Of a DNA stretch of 64,000 bases, positions 3,820 through 57,926 are shown in pieces. Both the position numbers and the translations under genes were made by a program. The DNA is from Alphaproteobacteria bacterium. GTDB lineage: Bacteria > Pseudomonadota > Alphaproteobacteria > GCA-2731375. The stretch lies in NCBI GenBank assembly GCA_040223615.1, contig JAVKFY010000069.1, positions 1 to 64,000 on the forward strand, read 5' to 3'. Numbering within the stretch: the first letter of the stretch is position 1; every line of letters begins with the position of its first letter. The notes below the pieces were generated by a model. The model was not told where the DNA came from. It saw nothing but the letters and a program-made list of their open reading frames with translations, and ran no database searches.

Positions 3820-4529
3820 GGCGTCGTCTCGGATGGCGCGGCGGCGCTGTCCTCGGCCAGGCGGCCATCGTGGAACACCAGGCGGCGACGCGCGCAGGCG
3901 GCGATCTCGGCCTCGTGGGTGACCAGCACAACGGTAATTCCGTCACGGTTGAGCGCGTCGAAGATTGCCATGATCTCGCCCGAGGTCTGGCTGTCGAGCG
4001 CGCCGGTCGGCTCGTCGGCGAGCAGGATCGAGGGCCGGTTGACCAGTGCGCGGGCAATCGCCACGCGCTGCTGCTGGCCGCCGGAAAGCTGCGCCGGGTG
4101 GTGGTCCATGCGATCGGCCAGGCCGACTCGCTCCAGGCTCTCCGTGGCGCGGCGCCGGCGCTCGGCGGCGCCGATGCCGGCATAGACCAGCGGCAGCTCG
4201 ACATTGTGCAGCGCCGTGGTCCGGGGCAGCAGGTTGAACTGCTGGAACACGAAGCCGATGGCCCGGTTCCGAAATGCCGCCAGCGCGTCGGCGCCAAGGC
4301 CGCCGAGATCGCTGCCGTCGACGGTCAGCCTGCCGGCGCTCGGCACGTCGAGCGCACCCAGCAGGTTCATGAAGGTCGACTTGCCGGACCCGGACGGCCC
4401 CATCACCGCGACATACGCGCCGGCCTCGACGGCGAGCGACACGCCGCGCAGCGCCGCCACCTCGGTCTCGCCCATCTGGTAGGTCTTGTGCACGTCCTCC
4501 GCGCGGATCAGCGCTGTCGCGGCGGCCAT
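3816..4529 (-). CDS. ABC transporter ATP-binding protein (MacB/LolD-type, DevA-like)
   Basis: Walker A GPSGSGKST, signature LSGGQQQRVAIARAL, Walker B ILLADEPTGALD. Confidence 0.9.
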   Translation of the reverse strand: MAAATALIRAEDVHKTYQMGETEVAALRGVSLAVEAGAYVAVMGPSGSGKSTFMNLLGALDVPSAGRLTVDGSDLGGLGADALAAFRNRAIGFVFQQFNLLPRTTALHNVELPLVYAGIGAAERRRRATESLERVGLADRMDHHPAQLSGGQQQRVAIARALVNRPSILLADEPTGALDSQTSGEIMAIFDALNRDGITVVLVTHEAEIAACARRRLVFHDGRLAEDSAAAPSETTP

Positions 4530-17063: not shown

Positions 17064-19799
17064 ATGCTGGGTATTGGAATTGCGTTGTTGGTTACCGCGA
17101 TCATCGTGATCGCGATCCTGTACGTGATTTCGATCTGGATATACAAACGCGCGCCCGCGAATATGTGCTTCATCCGCACCGGCTTCCTGGGCACCAAGGT
17201 CTGCCTCGGCAAGGGCGCCCTGGTCCTGCCGGTGTTCCACGAGGTCACCTGGGTCTCGCTGGAGACCATCAAGATCATCGTCAGCCGCGCCCGCGAGCAG
17301 GCGGTGCTGACGATCGACAATATCCGCGTCGACATCGGCGTCGAGCTCTATGCCCACGTCGGCCACACCGACGACATGGTGCTGACCGCCTCGCGCTCGC
17401 TGGGTGAGAAGACTTTCGATGCCGAACAGGTCCGCGCCCTGCTGGAGGCCAAGGTGGTCTCCGCCGTGCGCTCCTATGCGGCGACCATGACGCTGCAGCA
17501 GTTGCACGAGAACCGCGACGCCTTCGCCAAGGGCATCAAGGAGGCGGTGCTGGAGAGCTTCTCCGCCAACGGCCTGATGCTGGAGGAGGTGACCATCACC
17601 TCGCTGGAGCAGGCCTCCAAGGAATTCTTCAAGACCGACAACGTGTTCGACGCCGAGGGCCTGAAGGTGATCACCGACATCACCTCCAACGCCCGGCGCG
17701 AGGTGCACTCGACCGAGAAGCGCACCACCGTGGCGATCCGCCAGAAGGAACTCGACACCCAGCTCGAACTGCTGGAGATCGAGCGCAACGAGGCCTTCGC
17801 GCGCGCCAACCAGGACAAGGAAGTCGCCAACGAGCAGGCCCAGCAGCTCGGCCAGAAGCAGATCTTCGTGCTCGACCAGCGCCGCGCGGTCGAAGAGAAG
17901 GAGATCGAGAACGAAAAGGAACTGAACCGCACGCGCACCGAGCGCGACATATCCGCCAGCGAGGAAGAGCGCCGCCGCGAGGTCTCCGAGATCCGCAATG
18001 CGCTGACCCTGGAGCAGGAGCGCCGCGACCGCGAGATCGCCATCATCGCCAAGGCGCAGGAAGAGGAACTGGCCAACATCAGCCGCCGCCTCACCCTGGA
18101 GAAGGCCGAGCGCGACCGCGAGATCGAGTTGCTGTCGAAGTCGGAGCAGGTCGAGCTGGCGGAGATCCGCCGCGGCCTGACCCGGGAGCGGGCCGAGAAG
18201 GACCGAGAGATCGAGCTGATCGACAAGGACCGCGAACGCGAGCAGGCCGACATCCAGCGTCTGACCGCGATCACCCGGGAGTCCGAGACCGCCCGCGACG
18301 AACGCCATCGCGCCGAGCGCGAGGCCGGCCTCGCGATCCGCCAGCGCGAGAAGGAAGTCCACCTCCTGAATCTCGACATCGAGAAGACCGAGGCCTTCGC
18401 CGACGCCCTGCAGGAGACCGAGGTCTCCAACGAGCGCGCCCGCGTACTGGCCGAGCAGCAGCGCTACATCCTCGACCGCCGGCTGGAGGTCGCGGAGGAA
18501 GAGATCGACAAGGCGCTGGCCATCGAGAAGGCGCAGATCGCCAAGGAGGCCGCTGCCGCCGAGGCCGCCAAGGCGCAGGACGCAGCTGAAATCGCCCGCG
18601 CGTTGGCCCGCGAGACCGAGGAACGCGCCCGCGCCATCGCGCTGGCCGGCAAGGACGCCGAACTACGCCGCACCGAGGTCCAGCAGGCGCTGACCGTCGA
18701 GGTCGAGGAGCGCAACCGCGAAATCGCCCTGATCGCCAAGGACCAGGAGCGCGAGAGCGCCGACATCCGCCGCATGCTGGCGCGCGAGCTGGAGGAGCGC
18801 GACCGCGAGATCGCACTGACCCAGAAGCAGAAGCAGCTCGAGGCGGCCGAGGTCGACAAGCTGACCACCACCGCCGAACGCGAGCGCGCCGCGCACGAGG
18901 TCGAATCCGTTCGCCACGTCGCCGACGCCCAGCGGACCAAGGAGATCGAGCTGATCGCCGCTGCCCAGGCCGCCGAGCGCCAGCGCATCGAGGAAGACGC
19001 CAAGGCGCAGATCACGCGCATGCACATGGTCACCCAGTCCGAGGCCCGCAAAGCCTCGGCCAAGGACGATGCCGAGGCGATCATGGTGCGCGCCCAGGCC
19101 GGCGCCGACGCGCAGAAGATCACCGCCGACGGCATCGAGCGCGAGGCCGGCGCGGTCGGGCGCGCCGAGGCCGAGGTCGAGGGCCTGCGCGTGCGCAACA
19201 CGCAACGCGCGCTGGAGGCCGAGGCCAAGGGCATCGAGGCCAAGGCCGAGGCGCTGGCCAAGTACAACGAGGCCGCGACCTTCCTGGAGCTTGCCAAGCT
19301 GCGCATCGAGGCCGAGCGCGAGATCCACGTGCAGCAGGCCACCTCGATGGGCACAGCACTCAGCGGCGCGCAGATCCGCATGTACGGCGACGGCGGCAAT
19401 GGCACCGTCGACACCATCCGCGGCATGTTCACCAAGGGCTTCGCGCTGGGCGAGGTGCTGGAGGGCGTGGCGCAGTCGCTGCCCGAAGGACTGCGCCGGC
19501 GGCTCTCGGCGACCGGCCTGGCCGGCCTGATCGGCGCCGCGCCGTCGAACCGCGACCTGCTGGCGGCGATGGGCGCGTTGCAGGACCTGGTGCGTGGCAG
19601 CTTGAGCAACCGCGAGGCCCGCTCGGTGCCGTTCCCCGAGGCGGTGCAGACGCTCGCGGATGCGGCCGATGGCGACAGCCAGACCCGCGCGGTGGAGCTG
19701 CTGGGCGCGCTGAACGCCGACGACGTGCTGGCCGACGTGCCGTTCGAGACCGTCTGGTCGCTGCTTCAGGCCATGGCCCGCGCCGCCTCCGACGAGTAG
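17064..19799 (+). CDS. flotillin/SPFH (band 7) family protein with extended coiled-coil repeat region
   Basis: N-terminal TM helix plus SPFH domain (…VLPVFHEVTWVSLETIKIIVSRAREQAVLTIDNIRVDIGVELYAHV…). This is followed by ~450 aa of E/R/K-rich heptad repeats (…ERDREIELL…, ≥6 units of ~29 aa) and a C-terminal flotillin tail. Confidence 0.8.
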   Translation: MLGIGIALLVTAIIVIAILYVISIWIYKRAPANMCFIRTGFLGTKVCLGKGALVLPVFHEVTWVSLETIKIIVSRAREQAVLTIDNIRVDIGVELYAHVGHTDDMVLTASRSLGEKTFDAEQVRALLEAKVVSAVRSYAATMTLQQLHENRDAFAKGIKEAVLESFSANGLMLEEVTITSLEQASKEFFKTDNVFDAEGLKVITDITSNARREVHSTEKRTTVAIRQKELDTQLELLEIERNEAFARANQDKEVANEQAQQLGQKQIFVLDQRRAVEEKEIENEKELNRTRTERDISASEEERRREVSEIRNALTLEQERRDREIAIIAKAQEEELANISRRLTLEKAERDREIELLSKSEQVELAEIRRGLTRERAEKDREIELIDKDREREQADIQRLTAITRESETARDERHRAEREAGLAIRQREKEVHLLNLDIEKTEAFADALQETEVSNERARVLAEQQRYILDRRLEVAEEEIDKALAIEKAQIAKEAAAAEAAKAQDAAEIARALARETEERARAIALAGKDAELRRTEVQQALTVEVEERNREIALIAKDQERESADIRRMLARELEERDREIALTQKQKQLEAAEVDKLTTTAERERAAHEVESVRHVADAQRTKEIELIAAAQAAERQRIEEDAKAQITRMHMVTQSEARKASAKDDAEAIMVRAQAGADAQKITADGIEREAGAVGRAEAEVEGLRVRNTQRALEAEAKGIEAKAEALAKYNEAATFLELAKLRIEAEREIHVQQATSMGTALSGAQIRMYGDGGNGTVDTIRGMFTKGFALGEVLEGVAQSLPEGLRRRLSATGLAGLIGAAPSNRDLLAAMGALQDLVRGSLSNREARSVPFPEAVQTLADAADGDSQTRAVELLGALNADDVLADVPFETVWSLLQAMARAASDE

Positions 19800-28844: not shown

Positions 28845-28918
28845 GGGCGGACCTCTCGACTGTGCCGGCATCTTCCGCGATTGCACGCCCGCCAGCCAGC
28901 CCACATCATGTGGGCGAC

Positions 28919-29779
28919 ATGGAAGATGTACTGAAGATCAGCCGGCCTACGGGCGCGCCGGCGCCGGTGGTATTCGACTCGCCGCATTCCGGCCGGCACT
29001 TTCCGGCCGATGCCGGGGCGGAGCTTGACGTCGCGCGGCTCGGCATCGGCGCCGACCGGCTGGTCGACGAACTGTTCGCGGACGCCCCGCAGCACGGCGC
29101 GGTGCTGATCGCGGCGCATTTCAGCCGCGCCTATATCGACCCGAACCGGCACGAGAACGATCTCGACCCCGGCATGCTGGACGAGCCCTGGCCGCAACCG
29201 CTGCGCCCAACCGCCTCGACCAAGCGCGGGCGCGGCCTGATCTGGCGCTACACCGGCAAGGGCGAGGCGATCTACGGCGACCGCCGGCTCGGCACGCGGG
29301 AAATCCGGCAACGGGTCGAGAATTACTGGCGGCCCTACCACGATGCGCTGGCCGAGGCGCTGGACGGCCTGCACGCCCGCTTCGGCGCGGTCTGGCACGT
29401 GAACTGCCACTCGATGGGCTCGATCGGCCGCAAGCGCCACCCCGATCCGGGCCGGCAGCGCGCCGACTTCACCATCTCCGACCGAGACGGCAGCACCTGC
29501 GATGCGGCATTCCTCGACCATGTCGGGCAGACGCTGGGCGAAATGGGCTACTCGGTGGCGATCAACGATCCGTATCTCGGCATGGAGCTGATCCGCCGCC
29601 ACGGCCGTCCGCGGCACGACCGGCACAGCATGCAGATCGAGATCAATCGCCGGCTCTACCTGGACGAGAAGACCATGCGCCGGCATGACGGCTTCGAGCG
29701 GCTGCGCGAGGATCTGTCGCGGCTGGCCGCCTCGGTCTGTGACTACGCCCGTGCCGCCAGCCGGGCCGACGTCGCGTGA
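28919..29779 (+). CDS. N-formylglutamate amidohydrolase family protein (FGase/HutG-like)
   Basis: MEDVLKISRPTGAPAPVVFDSPHSGRHFP… motif of the FGase family. Confidence 0.7.
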   Translation: MEDVLKISRPTGAPAPVVFDSPHSGRHFPADAGAELDVARLGIGADRLVDELFADAPQHGAVLIAAHFSRAYIDPNRHENDLDPGMLDEPWPQPLRPTASTKRGRGLIWRYTGKGEAIYGDRRLGTREIRQRVENYWRPYHDALAEALDGLHARFGAVWHVNCHSMGSIGRKRHPDPGRQRADFTISDRDGSTCDAAFLDHVGQTLGEMGYSVAINDPYLGMELIRRHGRPRHDRHSMQIEINRRLYLDEKTMRRHDGFERLREDLSRLAASVCDYARAASRADVA

Positions 29780-29848
29780 GCGCGCCACCGCACGCTCTCG
29801 ACTTCGACCCGGCCTCGACGCGATGCGTCGAGCCCGTAGGGCTCGGCC

Positions 29849-30940
29849 ATGAGTAGAATTCCACCGCCTTTCGCCAACAGCTACGTCGAAGCGCGCAAGC
29901 TGTTCCTGGCCGCCGCCGCGGCAGTCGGTGCCGATATCGAGACACATCGCCATCCGCTGCCGGGCCCCGACGGCGCGCCACTGTTCACCGACATCGCCTG
30001 GCTCGGCCCGGCCGACGCACGCCGGGTGATGCTGACCTGCTCCGGCACGCACGGGGTCGAAGGATACTGCGGCTCCGGCTGCCAGGTCGCGTGGCTAGGC
30101 AGCGCCGCGCCGAAGAGCTTGCCGCGCGGCACGGCGGCGGTGCTGGTACACGCGATCAACCCGTTCGGCTTCGCCTGGGACCGGCGCGTGAACGAGGACA
30201 ATGTCGACATCAACCGCAACTTCGTCGACCACGCCAAGCCGCCCGAGAATGCCCTGTGGCCGGAGATCGCCGACGTTCTGACGCCAGAGGTCTGGGACGA
30301 TGGCGCGCGCAAGGTGATGGGCGTGGCGATCAACCTGTTCATCGAGCGCCACGACCAGCGCGCCTACATCGCCGCCGCCTCGTCCGGCCAGTTCAGCCAC
30401 CCCGACGGCATTTTCTATGGCGGCGCCGCACCGGTCTGGTCGAACCGGGTGATGGACGGTTTCACCCGGCGCCGGCTGGGCCACGTGAAGCGGCTGGCGG
30501 TGATCGACTTCCACACCGGGCTGGGGCCGCGCGGCTACGGCGAACTGATCTGCCGCCACCCGACCGACAGCGAGTCCCTGGCGCGTGCACGACGCTGGTA
30601 TGGCAACGGCGTCACCTCGCCGGCCGCCGGTGAGAGCGGCTCGCCGGTGATCGACGGCAACCTGCGCATGGCCTTCGTCGGCTGGCTGCCGGAAGCCGAG
30701 GTCACCTCGGTCGCGATCGAGTACGGCACCTATCCGGAGGACAAGGTGTTCAATGCCCTGGTCGCCGACAACTGGCTGCACCTGCACGGCGACATGACCA
30801 CGCGCAAGGGCCGCGCCATCAAGGCCGACATCCGCGAGATGTTCTACCCCGACGCCGACGATTGGCGCGAGGCGGTGCTGGAACGCGCAGCGCAAGTCCA
30901 GGCCCGCGCCGTCGAAGGGCTGACCACGCCAGACGCTTGA
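29849..30940 (+). CDS. DUF2817 / M14-like (succinylglutamate desuccinylase/aspartoacylase-fold) protein
   Basis: 363 aa; HxxE…H zinc-ligand spacing pattern suggested (TCSGTHGVEGYCGS … HTGLGP). Confidence 0.55.
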   Translation: MSRIPPPFANSYVEARKLFLAAAAAVGADIETHRHPLPGPDGAPLFTDIAWLGPADARRVMLTCSGTHGVEGYCGSGCQVAWLGSAAPKSLPRGTAAVLVHAINPFGFAWDRRVNEDNVDINRNFVDHAKPPENALWPEIADVLTPEVWDDGARKVMGVAINLFIERHDQRAYIAAASSGQFSHPDGIFYGGAAPVWSNRVMDGFTRRRLGHVKRLAVIDFHTGLGPRGYGELICRHPTDSESLARARRWYGNGVTSPAAGESGSPVIDGNLRMAFVGWLPEAEVTSVAIEYGTYPEDKVFNALVADNWLHLHGDMTTRKGRAIKADIREMFYPDADDWREAVLERAAQVQARAVEGLTTPDA

Positions 30941-52095: not shown

Positions 52096-53100
52096 TCACT
52101 TTGAATTCTGAGTCGCCCGCTTCTTGTACGGGCCGCGCGGGCCAGGCTTCGGCGCCCGCGCATCGATCAGCCCCACGATCCACGCCATGTCGCGCAACTC
52201 GGTCGCCACGCCAGCAGCCATTGCCGGCGACAGGCCCTTGAGGCTCTTGTGCTGCCGGCAGAAGTTATACCAGACGAAGTACAGCGACAGCGCGTGCGTG
52301 TGGTTCTCGACCTTCTTGCTGAAGGCGTTGGTCAGGCGAGTGAACCGGCGCATGGACATGCGCATGGTCAGGTTCTGCCGCTCCACGTAGCTGGTGCTGA
52401 CGTGCTTCGGATCGGGCTTGCCCTCGACGCGGCGGCGATGCGTGCCGATGCAGACCGGCGGGCTGTACCGGCGCTGGCCTTCAGGCGCTTGGCCGTACAA
52501 CTTCACGAGCTGGGCATAGTCCACGTCACCACCAAAAGCGCCCTCGACCGCATCGAGGTAGGCGCGGTGGCCATCGGTGGTTAGCTGCACACGATTGGCC
52601 AGCCGCCTCGCAACGTCGTCCATGAACTCCATCGCGAAGTCACCGTCGCGGCCGGGCGTTACCAGCCACGACACGATCAGCTTGGAGTCGCTGTCCAGCG
52701 CCGTCCACGTCCACACGTCGCCAGCGCCGTCCGGAGCCGCCTTCGCCGTCTTGACGTTCTTGGCCTTGGCGTAGGCGAAGCTCCAAATCTCGTCGGCCTG
52801 CACTCGCTTCGCTTTTACGTCGCGCACCGCCTCATCGTGGTAGGCGGCGCAGGCGTTGCCGGCGTCGACCAGCAGCTTGGTCACGGTGTTGATCGACACA
52901 TCGCACACGCGGCTGATCGACCGCATGGACGAGCCCTCGCACAGCATGGAGAGGATTTGGACGCGCTTCGCGAGGGGCAGCTTGTTAGCCATACCCTCAA
53001 TATATGAACTTCGATGCTTAGCGTCAAGAAATTTGTTCATAATGAAGCCGCATAGCGCCCTGCGACGGCTGGTCGCGGGAAATGACTCGTGCATTGTCAA
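52096..53100 (-). CDS. IS1-family-like DDE transposase (fused InsA-InsB-type single ORF)
   Basis: HTH N-terminus (…MRSISRVCDVSINTVTKLL…). InsB-like block ADEIWSF…W…TDGHRAY…ERQNL…FSK is co-linear with IS1 InsB (DEMWSF…TDGWPLY…ERHNL…FSK). Confidence 0.6.
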   Translation of the reverse strand: MTMHESFPATSRRRALCGFIMNKFLDAKHRSSYIEGMANKLPLAKRVQILSMLCEGSSMRSISRVCDVSINTVTKLLVDAGNACAAYHDEAVRDVKAKRVQADEIWSFAYAKAKNVKTAKAAPDGAGDVWTWTALDSDSKLIVSWLVTPGRDGDFAMEFMDDVARRLANRVQLTTDGHRAYLDAVEGAFGGDVDYAQLVKLYGQAPEGQRRYSPPVCIGTHRRRVEGKPDPKHVSTSYVERQNLTMRMSMRRFTRLTNAFSKKVENHTHALSLYFVWYNFCRQHKSLKGLSPAMAAGVATELRDMAWIVGLIDARAPKPGPRGPYKKRATQNSK

Positions 53101-53127
53101 GGCTAATGTGGTACCAAATATAGTACT

Positions 53128-53436
53128 ATGACGCCTCGCAAGCTAGCCCGCATTGAGGCTGACCTCGAATCCCTGCGGCGGTCGCCTCACAAGGCCGTCG
53201 CATATGAGCGTGTGGCGCAGAAGCTGGGACGGGTGCGGAAGAGTAGAGGAAAGGAGCCGATGTGGGAGAATCCGGAACTGCCAGGGCAGTTCCCCCTCGC
53301 GATTCCGCACCACGGAGGAAGGGACATACCAGTCGGCACACGCAACTCAATTTGCGACCAGCTAGAAAGCGACGTTCTGGCGTGGAGAGAAAAACTGGAA
53401 AGAGCAGCAAGAGCCAACGGTGGTAGTCATGGATAA
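53128..53436 (+). CDS. hicA: HicA-like toxin (type II TA), with N-terminal extension
   Basis: C-terminal IPHHGGRDIPVGTRNSICDQL resembles HicA …HPxKDLPxGTLxSILKQ…; directly upstream of and overlapping hicB. Confidence 0.5.
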   Translation: MTPRKLARIEADLESLRRSPHKAVAYERVAQKLGRVRKSRGKEPMWENPELPGQFPLAIPHHGGRDIPVGTRNSICDQLESDVLAWREKLERAARANGGSHG

Positions 53437-53950
53437 CCTTCAGGCAAAAGTAATGGAGCATCTAAGGAAGCCGTATGCTCGCGTGGTAACGCCAGAAGAT
53501 GACGGAACATTCCGCGCAGAAATTCTAGAGTTCTCTGGCTGTCTGGCCACCGGTGACACTGCGGCAAAAGCGCTTGAAGCGCTAGAACGTGTAGCAGAGA
53601 GCTGGCTAGAGTTCGTATTGGAGAAGGGGCAGCGCGTTCCTGACCCGATTGAAACAGCAGAGTACAGCGGCAAGTTGATGCTGCGACTTCCGAAGAGCCT
53701 CCACAAGAAGGCGGCACATGCAGCAGATCGGGACGGAGTAAGCCTTAACCAGTTCATTGTCAGCAGTGTTGCCCTTGAAGTGGGAGAGCGCGTCGCACCC
53801 CAGCAAGTAGCCCAGCCCCAAAGCGTAGTGTTCGTGGCAGTGGCAAATGCCGGTGCGCAATGGATTGCGACTGGGTTCAATTCCGCAGCAACTACCGCCG
53901 GCATCCTTACCCCGTTGACCGTCCCAATAGGAGCACTCCGTCATGCCTGA
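53420..53950 (+). CDS. hicB: HicB family antitoxin (HicB_lk N-domain + C-terminal RHH)
   Basis: N-terminal VVTPEDDGTFRAEILEFSGCLATGDTAAKALEALERVAESWLEF HicB fold; C-terminal MLRLPKSLHKKAAHAADRDGVSLNQFIVSSVA ribbon-helix-helix. Confidence 0.65.
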   Translation: MVVMDNLQAKVMEHLRKPYARVVTPEDDGTFRAEILEFSGCLATGDTAAKALEALERVAESWLEFVLEKGQRVPDPIETAEYSGKLMLRLPKSLHKKAAHAADRDGVSLNQFIVSSVALEVGERVAPQQVAQPQSVVFVAVANAGAQWIATGFNSAATTAGILTPLTVPIGALRHA

Positions 53951-55764: not shown

Positions 55765-56763
55765 CTAGATCCGCCCCTCTTCGACCGCGTGGCAGGCAAC
55801 GTGGGCCTCGGCCACGGTGCGCAGCACCGGGCGTTCGGCCATGCACCGGTCGTTGGCGTGCGGACAGCGCGGGTGGAACGGACAGCCAGACGGCGGGTTG
55901 ATCGGGCTTGGCACCTCGCCGGCGACCGGCACCCGTTGCCGCCCGGTCATGTCGAGGTCCGGGATCGCGTCCAGCAGCATCCGCGTGTACGGATGACGCG
56001 GATTGCGGAACAGGTACTTGGTCTCCGCCCACTCCACCAGCCGGCCCAGGTACATCACCCCGACATGGGTCGAGACGTGATAGACCACGGCCAGGTCGTG
56101 GCTGATGAACAGGTAGGTCAGCCCCAATTGCCGTTGTAAGTCGCGCATCAGGTTCAGGATCTGCGCCTGCACCGAGACGTCCAGCGCCGAGGTCGGCTCG
56201 TCGCAGACCAGGAAGTCCGGCTCGCCGGCCAGCGCCCGGGCGATCGAGATGCGCTGGCGCTGTCCGCCGGAGAATTCGTGCGGGTATTTCTCCGCATCCA
56301 GCGGCGACAGCCCGACCTGACTCAGCAGCTCGCCGGCACGCTTTCGCAGATCCATGCCGCCGGCCCGGCGCAGCGCCACGATCGGCTCGACCACGATCTC
56401 GCCGACGCGCCAGCGCGGGTTCAGCGAGGCATAGGGATCCTGGAAGATCATCTGCATGCGCGGCTGCACCTGTGCGCGCGCCGCACCGTGGCCCTTGGCG
56501 CCGATCTCCACGCCCTCGAAAAGGATCGACCCGGCCGACGCGCCGTACAGCCCGACGATCAGGCGTGCCACCGTTGACTTGCCGCAACCGCTCTCGCCGA
56601 CCAGCGAGAAGGTCTCGCCCTTGGCGATGCGGAAGTCGATGCCGTCGACCGCCTTCACCACCGCGCGCGGGCGCCGCTCGATGACCCGGTTCAGCCACGG
56701 CGGCGACACGTCGAAGTAGCGTGCCAGGTCGGCGACCTGGAGCAGCGGCGTCGCCTCGCTCAT
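55765..56763 (-). CDS. dppF: dipeptide/oligopeptide ABC transporter ATP-binding protein DppF
   Basis: Start MSEATPLLQVADL…; Walker A GESGCGKST, signature FSGGQRQRISIARAL, C-terminal oligopeptide-ABC extension (CPFHPRCP). Confidence 0.85.
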   Translation of the reverse strand: MSEATPLLQVADLARYFDVSPPWLNRVIERRPRAVVKAVDGIDFRIAKGETFSLVGESGCGKSTVARLIVGLYGASAGSILFEGVEIGAKGHGAARAQVQPRMQMIFQDPYASLNPRWRVGEIVVEPIVALRRAGGMDLRKRAGELLSQVGLSPLDAEKYPHEFSGGQRQRISIARALAGEPDFLVCDEPTSALDVSVQAQILNLMRDLQRQLGLTYLFISHDLAVVYHVSTHVGVMYLGRLVEWAETKYLFRNPRHPYTRMLLDAIPDLDMTGRQRVPVAGEVPSPINPPSGCPFHPRCPHANDRCMAERPVLRTVAEAHVACHAVEEGRI

Positions 56764-56940
56764 GGCCGTGCCCAGCAGGACACGGCCTGTCCGTAAATAT
56801 GAGCGTGCTGTTGCGCGCTCATGGCCGTGCCCAGCAGGACACGGCCTGTCCAAAGTTATGAGCGTGCTGTTGCGGGCTCATGGCCGTGCCCAACAGGACA
56901 CGGCCTGTCCAAAGTTATGAGCGTGCTGTTGCGCGCTCAT
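56761..56940 (-). repeat. three tandem copies of a 59-bp element at the dppD/dppF junction, each carrying a hairpin and an ATGA-coupled 20-codon mini-ORF
   Basis: Unit starts at 56761, 56820 and 56879 (plus strand catggccgtgccca[g/a]caggacacggcctgtcc[gt/aa]aa[at/gt]tatgagcgtgctgttgcg[c/g]gct), with a fourth CATG at 56938. Reverse-strand mini-ORFs 56940..56878, 56881..56819 and 56822..56760 encode MSAQQHAHNFGQAVSCWARP, MSPQQHAHNFGQAVSCWARP and MSAQQHAHIYGQAVSCWARP. Confidence 0.8.
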
Positions 56941-57926
56941 GCCGGCACCTCTTCGAACAGGTGGCAGGCGGTGTCGACCCCGTCGACATTGCGCAGTTCC
57001 GGCCGCTGTTCGCGGCACCGGTCCATCACCCTCGGGCAGCGCGGATGGAAGGCGCAGCCGGTGGGGTGATCGGTCAGCCGCGGCATCGAGCCCTCGATCT
57101 GCACCAGCCGGTCGACGTCGGCGCCGACATGCGGGATCGAGCCCATCAGGCCCACCGTGTAGGGATGCTTGGCATTGCGCACAACCTCGCGCACCGGCCC
57201 GACCTCGACGATGCGGCCGGCATACATCACCGCGACCCGGTCGGCCGCCTCGGCAATCACGCCCATGTCGTGCGTCACCAGCATCACCGCGGTGTGGTGT
57301 TCGCGGCAAAGCCGTTTCAGCAGACTGATGATCTGCGCCTGGATCGACACGTCCAGCGCCGTGGTCGGCTCGTCGGCGATGATCAGCCGCGGCTCCGCGC
57401 ACAGCGCCAGCGCGATCACCACCCGTTGCCGCATGCCGCCGGAGAACTGGTGCGGATAATGGTCGAGGCGTTCTTCCGCCGCCGGAATGCCGACCTCCTT
57501 GAGCAGGTCCAGCGCCCGCGCCCGGGCCTGCTTCTCGGTCATCGGCAAGTGCGTCTGGATCGTCTCGATGAGCTGCTTGGAGACCCGGTAGAGCGGGTTC
57601 AGGCTGGTCAGCGGGTCCTGGAAGATCGCGCCGATACGGCGGCCGCGAATTCGGCGCATCTGCTCGTAGGGCAAATCGTCGATGCGCTCGCCCTCCAGCC
57701 GGATTTCGCCGTCGGCGATGCGCCCCGGGGGCTCCAGCAGGCCGATCACGGCAGCACCTGTCATCGACTTGCCGGCGCCGCTCTCGCCGACCACGCCCAG
57801 CACCTCGCCGGGGTCGATATGCAGTGACACGTCGTGCACCGCGACCAGCGTGCCACGCCGGGTTGGGAACTCGACCCGCAGGTTCTTGACCTCCAGGAGA
57901 GGCTGGTTGGCGGGGATCTTGGTCAT
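56937..57926 (-). CDS. dppD: dipeptide/oligopeptide ABC transporter ATP-binding protein DppD
   Basis: Start MTKIPANQPLLEVKNL… (ATGA overlap with dppC stop); Walker A GESGAGKS, signature FSGGMRQRVVIALAL; the 702-aa ORF in the track is an unstopped upstream extension of this frame. Confidence 0.85.
   Translation of the reverse strand: MTKIPANQPLLEVKNLRVEFPTRRGTLVAVHDVSLHIDPGEVLGVVGESGAGKSMTGAAVIGLLEPPGRIADGEIRLEGERIDDLPYEQMRRIRGRRIGAIFQDPLTSLNPLYRVSKQLIETIQTHLPMTEKQARARALDLLKEVGIPAAEERLDHYPHQFSGGMRQRVVIALALCAEPRLIIADEPTTALDVSIQAQIISLLKRLCREHHTAVMLVTHDMGVIAEAADRVAVMYAGRIVEVGPVREVVRNAKHPYTVGLMGSIPHVGADVDRLVQIEGSMPRLTDHPTGCAFHPRCPRVMDRCREQRPELRNVDGVDTACHLFEEVPA

Follow-up and report, generated by a model that had tools for sequence, protein, structure and literature searches.

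A tandem array of a dispersed 59-nucleotide repeat at the dppD–dppF junction of an uncultured alphaproteobacterium resembles mycobacterial interspersed repetitive units

A 64,000-nucleotide (nt) stretch from the metagenome-assembled genome (MAG) of an alphaproteobacterium (contig JAVKFY010000069.1, positions 1 to 64,000; hereafter the window) carries a tandem array of three 59-nt units between two ABC ATPase genes that resemble dppD and dppF. The array is likely to represent three copies of a small interspersed repeat of the same kind as the interspersed repetitive units of mycobacteria (MIRUs), which is tolerated in operons by regenerating the 4-nt stop/start overlap (-4 overlap) at which it is found and which passes translation on to the downstream gene through a relay of termination and reinitiation. 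The same unit is dispersed among unrelated operons of a second MAG, and the nearest relatives of the window have empty sites.

Structure of the array

Tandem Repeats Finder (TRF) places the array at 56757-56941 with a period of 59, 3.1 copies, 94% matches, 0 indels and a score of 328. The copies differ mutually at 2-6 positions, units 1 and 2 having a common centre and unit 3 another. On the minus strand the layout is ...GAAGAGGTGCCGGC-ATGA-(unit)-ATGA-(unit)-ATGA-(unit)-ATGA-GCGAGGCG..., and its translation gives three 20-codon mini open reading frames (mini-ORFs; ATGs at 56940, 56881 and 56822) in which every TGA overlaps the next ATG. The dppD-like product ends in ...EEVPA*, and the TGA that closes the gene falls within the first ATGA, while the TGA of the third mini-ORF overlaps the dppF-like ATG at 56763. 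This analysis followed up a sequence-only reading of the window, whose description of three tandem units, of an ATGA chain running from dppD through the mini-ORFs to dppF with a frame shift at each copy, and of the peptides MSAQQHAHNFGQAVSCWARP, MSPQQHAHNFGQAVSCWARP and MSAQQHAHIYGQAVSCWARP proved exact, as did its account of a 10-bp hairpin with one G·U pair at each start. Given that the source is a MAG, the exact copy number of three could reflect assembly.

Each unit can form two hairpins. The right hairpin, GGCCGUGUCC-UG(C/U)U-GGGCACGGCC, is the 10-bp stem just mentioned (-20.5 kcal/mol) and lies flush against the AUG. The left hairpin, absent from the sequence-only reading, has 7+2 bp (AUGAGCG-CGCAACAGCA-CGCUCAU, -12.7 kcal/mol) and contains the mini-ORF's own AUG. 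The 221-nt array region folds with a z-score of -7.6 relative to shuffles. Each right hairpin is followed by AUGAGC instead of the U-run that, together with a hairpin, marks an intrinsic terminator or attenuator, and neither promoter-like nor terminator-like sites were found in 56400-57300. Rfam families scored at best 12-21 bits on the array, below their gathering thresholds of 40-197.

The operon encodes one family-5 solute-binding protein (SBP_bac_5), two permeases and two ATPases, with the dppD-like and dppF-like genes at its end, each of whose products carries ABC_tran and oligo_HPY domains (Pfam). The NCBI annotation of the source MAG includes a 332-aa protein (P0001) that is 100% identical to the dppF-like product, in agreement with a start at 56763. 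The dppF frame also runs without a stop 5' of this start, across unit 3 and as far as unit 2, where a TTG at 56853 on the minus strand begins an ORF of 362 aa; gene callers that favour the longest ORF would misplace the dppF start and hide the array within a "coding" N-terminus. The permease/dppD junction of the same operon (57923-57926, minus strand) is likewise an ATGA overlap, in this case free of the element, and occupancy is therefore not set by the overlap alone.

Empty sites in close relatives

The closest relative of DppF among 5.8 billion proteins is P0002 (92% amino acid identity), found on two ENA metagenome contigs (L068 and L069) on which the dppD-dppF junction consists of a single ATGA, ...GAGGTGCCGGCATGAGTGCG. 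The empty junction reads ...CTGTTCGACGAGGTGCCGGCATGAGTGCGGAC..., and the window has the same flanks with an additional 177 nt (3 x 59) between two ATGAs. The single ATGA in the closest relative identifies the 177-nt array as an insertion. A more distant DppF relative (81%) has a 7-nt spacer at this junction.

A search of the window with a hidden Markov model (HMM) of 14 units (nhmmer) gave a weak match at 29776-29852, which is a diverged copy of the element. This copy reads GTGAGCGCGCCACCGCACGCTC...GGGCTCGGCC-ATGA, and in its left arm 19 of 21 positions agree with the consensus of the family. The right part folds into a different, branched hairpin, the closing stem of which (GGCC/GGCC) is that of the family and abuts the AUG. 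Upstream lies an FGase gene (28862-29779) with its TGA in the GTGA, and downstream a DUF2817/M14-like gene (29849-30940) with its ATG (29849) in the terminal ATGA; the mini-ORF ends 8 nt inside the latter gene (-8 overlap), and its peptide differs at the C-terminal end. At the FGase/DUF2817 junction, the syntenic contig L072 (~86% nt identity) has a plain GTGA and L073 an ATGA. Comparison of L072 with the window shows that the original GTG start stays to the left of the filled site, and that the element supplies the downstream gene with a new ATG. Outside the array neither arm was found in the window at up to 3 mismatches, as was also the case in 100 shuffles of the window, and a window-wide search for direct repeats revealed no further copy and no other intercistronic family.

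A dispersed family in a second genome

A scan for the hairpin alone (pattern GGCCGTGTCCNNNNGGGCACGGCC, without the ATGA) in one genome per species, covering 185,579 species, returned 66 loci. Twelve of these, with 13 matches, belong to a single MAG, "uncultured Rhodospirillales bacterium SRP135972_co2_19" (CAZVLI01), and each contains the entire 59-nt unit. About 50 of the 66 were rejected as unrelated terminator-like or coding hairpins from actinobacteria, Verrucomicrobia and others, with no similarity beyond the stem, and no other genome among the 185,579 species representatives has the 24-nt hairpin as part of such an element.

At the right end of the 13 CAZVLI01 copies, the base after the hairpin is the first of an ATGA (12 copies) or a GTGA (one copy), and the xTG opens a co-oriented ORF in every case (57 to >360 codons, with a G+C content at third codon positions, GC3, of 0.84-0.96). 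Within the 59-nt family, 14/14 copies have the xTGA overlap at the right end. On the left the unit opens with ATGA or GTGA, and the upstream ORF stops there directly at nine CAZVLI01 loci; two further loci follow suit if the nested insertion of L029 and the tandem copy of L055 are allowed for. The left-end tally is an xTGA overlap at 12 loci, a distance of +4 nt at L035 and no coupling at L041. The pattern of an original GTGA on the left and an ATGA on the right, as described for the copy at 29776, recurs at three CAZVLI01 loci. All 14 loci with readable flanks have the element co-oriented with the flanking genes, and there are no inverted pairs.

The flanking genes belong to unrelated operons without a common function (Pfam; Table 1). 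The array had been read as an evolved attenuator of DppF, which as a locus-specific device is contradicted by the presence of the same unit between ccmC and ccmD, flgI and a flgJ-like gene, mraZ and rsmH, liv permease and ATPase genes, and genes for unrelated enzymes. The alternative offered alongside it, a REP/RIME-like element that had captured the coupling site, comes close: the unit is interspersed, with 14 junctions besides that of dpp carrying it, and the nearest relative has an empty dpp site. It had also been proposed that occurrence at many unrelated sites without CATGA phasing would mark a generic REP insertion. The unrelated sites are indeed many, yet all of them are phased, and phasing is therefore a property of the family and not of the dpp locus.

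Copy number is three at dpp, two at L055 and one at the other loci. In the two-copy tandem array of L055 (2233-2355) the first unit has 60 nt, and the two frames consequently run together as a single ORF of 40 codons, again with the ATGA at its end. The copy at L029 (1387-1509, plus strand) carries a 60-nt GC-rich, palindromic insertion, cttgccgagcggtcggccgccttcggcggcgcgccggcgacccctccggggtcgcatcggcaag, in the loop of the left hairpin, and its ORF remains open for 40 codons from the upstream to the downstream ATGA; this insertion may be a second small element nested within the first. At L035, ATGC replaces ATGA, and 4 nt separate the stop of the upstream gene (GC3 0.89) from the ATG of the mini-ORF. 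The L041 copy (4056-4140, minus strand) is the only one uncoupled from its upstream gene, following a DUF2333 gene after a 72-nt gap. It precedes a universal-stress-protein gene, has a strong Shine-Dalgarno (SD)-like sequence, GGGGGAGG, 6 nt 5' of the mini-ORF ATG, and looks like a leader upstream ORF.

Table 1. Coordinates and basis of the features of the array, its surroundings and the dispersed family.
Feature	Coordinates	Strand	Basis
dppD-like ABC ATPase gene, 329 aa; TGA 56939-56937	56937..57926	-	ORF, translation, Pfam ABC_tran + oligo_HPY
GAGG SD-like motif, 7 nt 5' of mini-ORF 1 ATG; former dppF ribosome-binding site	56948..56951	-	sequence, anti-SD duplex
Unit 1 / mini-ORF 1, ATG 56940 to TGA 56878, peptide MSAQQHAHNFGQAVSCWARP	56878..56940	-	TRF, translation, HMM
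Unit 2 / mini-ORF 2, peptide MSPQQHAHNFGQAVSCWARP	56819..56881	-	TRF, translation, HMM
Unit 3 / mini-ORF 3, peptide MSAQQHAHIYGQAVSCWARP; TGA overlaps dppF ATG (56763-56761)	56760..56822	-	TRF, translation, HMM
Right-arm hairpin of unit 1, 10 bp, loop UGUU, -20.5 kcal/mol, ends at next AUG	56882..56905	-	fold
Right-arm hairpin of unit 2, loop UGCU	56823..56846	-	fold
Right-arm hairpin of unit 3, ends at dppF AUG	56764..56787	-	fold
Left-arm hairpin of unit 1, AUGAGCG...CGCUCAU, -12.7 kcal/mol, holds mini-ORF start codon	56917..56940	-	fold
Left-arm hairpins of units 2 and 3	56858-56881, 56799-56822	-	fold
dppF-like ABC ATPase gene, 332 aa, without SD-like sequence 5' of ATG	55765..56763	-	ORF, Pfam
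Diverged 77-nt relative of the element (29776-29852), 26-codon GTG mini-ORF to 29856	29776..29856	+	nhmmer, ORFs, Pfam, fold
Flanking pairs (several of those in this row and the next are classic operon partners): CcmC/CcmD; FlgI/rod-binding protein; MraZ/RsmH; LivH-type/LivM-type permeases; LivM-type permease/LivG-type ATPase			Pfam
Further flanking pairs: DsbB/COQ7; sulfotransferase/polysaccharide deacetylase; luciferase-like monooxygenase/NUDIX; MaoC/PALP enzyme; unknown/MR_MLE enolase			Pfam

Conservation, reading frame and ends of the element

The family consensus, drawn from an alignment of 14 units, consists of nTGAGCGCGCAnCAGCACGCTCAn, 9-10 variable nt, CnGGCCGTGTCCTGnTGGGCACGGCC and ATGA. 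The left arm, which lies outside every search pattern, is 94-95% identical both within CAZVLI01 and between CAZVLI01 and the window, whereas identity in the centre is 39-45%; the alignable genes of CAZVLI01 and the source MAG share ~72-78% DNA identity. Recurrent polymorphisms in the arms are confined to columns 1, 12, 24 and 48. The left hairpin is closed by the pair of columns 1 and 24, which show weak covariation (AU in 6 units, GC in 4, other in 4), at a level reached in 14 of 500 shuffles. Columns 12 and 48 lie in tetraloops, and columns 12, 24 and 48 are the third positions of codons 4, 8 and 16; being at once structural and third positions, they leave constraint on structure and on peptide inseparable in this sample of 14 units.

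The mini-ORF is open in all 18 units, including the two length variants. In the hypervariable centres of 15 distinct units there are no in-frame stops, against eight in frame +2 (shuffle P 0.012-0.019). A real small protein was also considered as the product of this frame and was ranked low, since the copy at 29776 encodes a different peptide.

Between 3 and 10 nt from the 5' end of the element recur in its right flank. The TGA is shared in every case, and TGAG is shared at 11 of 15 loci compared with 2-4 of 17 -4 overlaps that occur naturally in these sequences, a repeat compatible with either a short target duplication or a target preference. For comparison with miniature inverted-repeat transposable elements (MITEs), which have terminal inverted repeats and a target-site duplication of fixed length, the termini TGAGCGCGC and TGGCCGTGC (reverse complement) match at 6 of 9 positions in a by-eye reading of the alignment.

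Ribosome-binding sites and proposed mechanism

An SD-like site (at most -5 kcal/mol against the anti-SD sequence, with a spacing of 5-7 nt) precedes the left start at 8 of 12 loci. The right starts always score -3.0 with a 1-nt spacing, the preceding 20 nt being the 3' arm of the hairpin. At the dpp array the only SD-like sequence lies 5' of the first mini-ORF, where GAGG (56951-56948) gives an anti-SD duplex of -7.1 kcal/mol; the same motif stands 5' of dppF at the empty site of L068 (-7.2). With an SD at the left start and none at the right, insertion passes the ribosome-binding site (RBS) of the downstream gene to the mini-ORF; the start that remains to the downstream gene has no SD and stands flush with a -20.5 kcal/mol stem. 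A split SD, in which the hairpin would place a purine-rich end of the centre beside the AUG, was rejected owing to the inconsistency of this motif among copies.

A unit that starts with (A/G)TGA, ends just before an ATGA, measures 3n-1 nt and has an open frame converts one 4-nt overlap into two upon insertion, and each added unit creates one more stop/start overlap. At the dpp array, a ribosome finishing dppD, or loading at the old dppF RBS, would translate mini-ORF 1 and melt both hairpins, terminate on the UGA and reinitiate on the overlapping AUG, with three such relays required before dppF. Copies in operons would persist by virtue of this relay, which would avoid polarity, while insertions elsewhere and copies that lose the frame would be purged. 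Tolerance of this kind would account for the fixed orientation, the phasing, the open frame, the frame-keeping length variants and the SD at the uncoupled L041 copy. Since reinitiation falls short of full efficiency, the array probably reduces the ratio of DppF to DppD and ties DppF strictly to upstream translation, as judged from the sequence. The array may have grown by duplication in the case of units 1 and 2, with unit 3 stemming from an older duplication or from a second insertion into an ATGA made by the element. The two conserved hairpin arms would likely serve as the part recognized at the DNA level by a mobilising agent.

Comparison with known repeats and coupled junctions

The closest parallel is provided by MIRUs, which according to published accounts insert at start codons and contain an internal ORF coupled at -4 nt (Supply et al. 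1997, summarised in PMC12548453; PMC3184786). The same accounts give a size of 40-100 bp, 40-50 copies, a location in polycistronic intergenic regions with ORFs overlapping the adjacent genes, and both filled and empty sites with tetranucleotide direct repeats (PMC3184786); in strain H37Rv, a further report places three 77-bp MIRUs between senX3 and regX3 (PMC4213456). The sequence-only reading was aware of no described relay of ATGA-coupled mini-ORFs, however these elements, with their -4-coupled internal ORF and tandem arrays, are such a precedent (PMC12548453, PMC3184786, PMC4213456). The 59-nt element shares with them a short unit dispersed in operons at many loci, the orientation of the genes, sites that are filled or empty among relatives, a small ORF overlapping both the upstream stop and the downstream start, and the formation of tandem arrays, three 59-nt units at dppD-dppF corresponding to three 77-bp units at senX3-regX3. 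It differs in its host, an uncultured Rhodospirillales-like alphaproteobacterium rather than Mycobacterium, and it falls outside the MIRU sequence family as judged by host and hairpin distribution. Two strong hairpins, one of them abutting each start codon, further set it apart from the MIRU descriptions, as do near-invariant arms around a hypervariable 9-10-nt centre, a contrast that goes unmentioned in those descriptions. No report of a MIRU-like element outside mycobacteria was found in the literature, of which coverage was incomplete. The element is thus a new sequence family in a new phylum, characterized by strong hairpins, conserved arms and a hypervariable centre, while its functional kind, a MIRU-type operon repeat that preserves coupling, is already known.

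Repetitive extragenic palindromic (REP) sequences and BIMEs in enterobacterial operons (e.g. malE-malF), together with REPIN/RAYT systems, follow stop codons in untranslated spacers, occur in both orientations and often as inverted pairs, and contain no ORF (PMC3184786, PMC3337134). Like the 59-nt element they are dispersed GC-rich stem-loops in polycistronic mRNAs, able to shift the relative expression of the flanking cistrons, however the latter has a single gene orientation, no inverted pairs, a start-codon phase and an ORF. The REP2 repeat of Neisseria provides a promoter together with an RBS and serves as a 5' untranslated region (PMC3184786). REP2 and the upstream repeats of Borrelia are similar to the element in supplying the downstream ATG and in having two internal stem-loops (PMC3184786), although the 59-nt element differs from REP2 in having no promoter-like site or SD and in relying on an upstream translated frame. 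The ATGA overlap itself is a geometry experimentally shown to give tight coupling by termination-reinitiation (PMC6728339, PMC10666635, PMC12548453). The dpp chain has this same -4 overlap at each junction and departs from ordinary ATGA coupling in placing four overlaps in series, with 20-codon spacer frames supplied by the repeat.

Alternative explanations

Several observations weigh against the interpretation of the array as a MIRU-type repeat tolerated through a coupling-preserving relay. The relay is proposed from the sequence alone, covariation in the hairpins is limited to the one informative pair of columns 1 and 24, and the conservation of the right hairpin is partly a matter of construction, its stems having been fixed in the search pattern. 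The census is small, with two carrier genomes that are both MAGs. A metagenome scan with the left arm TGAGCGCGCARCAGCACGCTCA gave a single match (L067), a chance occurrence within a coding region and without the hairpin; blastn of 301 nt around the array against a plasmid collection gave no match, and a search with a doubled 40-aa profile of the mini-ORF found no protein sharing words with it. A passively tolerated selfish repeat should moreover decay evenly, in contrast to the conservation of arms (~95%), genes (~72-78%) and centre (~39-45%) seen here, and this unevenness requires that constraint on each copy, recent horizontal spread or gene conversion limited to the arms be added to the account. 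Recognition of the arms by a mobilising enzyme combined with recent spread, arm-limited gene conversion and host-level selection on each copy are all possible reasons for their conservation.

The last of these leads to an unlikely alternative, namely that the unit is a regulatory cassette selected by the host, in which a conserved 20-aa nascent peptide (MSAQQHAH...AVSCWARP-stop, with its Pro-UGA end), the two hairpins, or both tune reinitiation, possibly through slow termination or through a common factor that binds them. In that case the junctions bearing the unit would together constitute a post-transcriptional regulon, and the three copies at dpp would set the DppD:DppF ratio. This explanation draws on the contrast between arms and centre across two diverged genomes, on the synonymous nature of all arm polymorphisms at columns 12, 24 and 48, on the frame kept in every unit, and on downstream starts that are without exception SD-less and structurally occluded, so that output must be affected. 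The three columns are however loop or closing-pair positions for which structure alone suffices, and the copy at 29776 departs from the cassette in both its C-terminal peptide and its -8 overlap. Flanking genes that share no function, nearest relatives without the element at both window loci, and the lack of a protein database entry for the peptide in the profile search all speak against it as well. If it were true, the unit would be a portable cassette for coupling, with purifying selection acting on each copy, and a mobile repeat would have linked at least 12 otherwise unrelated junctions of operons in a single circuit of post-transcriptional control, the strength of which would follow from copy number (1, 2 or 3). 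Slightly less probable is an ordinary REP/REPIN palindrome mobilised by a RAYT, or a hairpin-ended miniature element derived from IS200/IS605, for which the start-codon position would reflect the choice of a target 3' of xTGA and translation of the mini-ORF would be irrelevant. Two subterminal GC-rich hairpins without obvious long terminal inverted repeats are in keeping with such an origin, as is the preference for TGAG in the right flank. The variable original GTG or ATG on the left and the constant element-supplied ATGA on the right are expected from insertion 3' of a short target, however duplication of the TGA explains them equally well. Such an element leaves unexplained that copies never form inverted pairs or oppose the genes (14/14 loci), that the frame is kept through the hypervariable centre and two length variants, and that the single uncoupled copy (L041) has an SD of its own; no Y1 transposase was seen within ~64 kb of the source and ~80 kb of CAZVLI01, and the nearby insertion sequence is IS1-like. 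This proposal concerns movement, and is compatible with the account of tolerance favoured here. The least probable is that the dppD-dppF junction was triplicated locally to yield an attenuator of DppF stoichiometry. An array at exactly this junction, units 1 and 2 that resemble a recent local duplication, and occluded, SD-less starts that would cut DppF synthesis would suit this origin, but the unit is not derived from the dpp junction, its 59 nt recur at 13 unrelated junctions of CAZVLI01, the closest relative has a single ATGA, and the match between unit and dppF 5' end is limited to 7 nt (ATGAGCG).

Other features of the window

An IS1-like transposase gene (52096-53100, minus strand; DDE_Tnp_IS1 at the Pfam threshold and a helix-turn-helix) and a gene for a HicB-family antitoxin (53420-53950, plus strand) lie ~2-3.5 kb past the 3' end of the dpp operon. 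These two genes suggest a recently rearranged or mobile neighbourhood, and no link between this neighbourhood (52096-53950) and the 59-nt element was found. At 17976-18814 (plus strand) there are eight degenerate repeats with 87-nt spacing (29 codons) and 60-74% identity, apparently within a coding region and with the motif ...EIR..L..E..ERDREI..., that look like a repeat protein.

Significance

To our knowledge, MIRUs have been treated for close to 30 years as a mycobacterial curiosity, with neither their mobility nor their effect on expression explained. The alphaproteobacterial family offers a cleaner model than MIRUs, having sharply bounded arms, frame-keeping length variants and, in its hypervariable centre, a neutral control within the element, and its natural junctions with 0, 1, 2 and 3 copies are suited to the study of the efficiency of serial termination-reinitiation and of the effect of hairpins that abut a start codon. 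For genome annotation, arrays of this kind resemble "intergenic" DNA, are probably translated and displace the true RBS of the downstream gene. The existence of an independent, sequence-unrelated family with MIRU architecture in alphaproteobacteria points to a possible general strategy, by which a short repeat colonises operons by landing on a stop/start overlap with a frame of 3n-1 nt that rebuilds the overlap on both sides.

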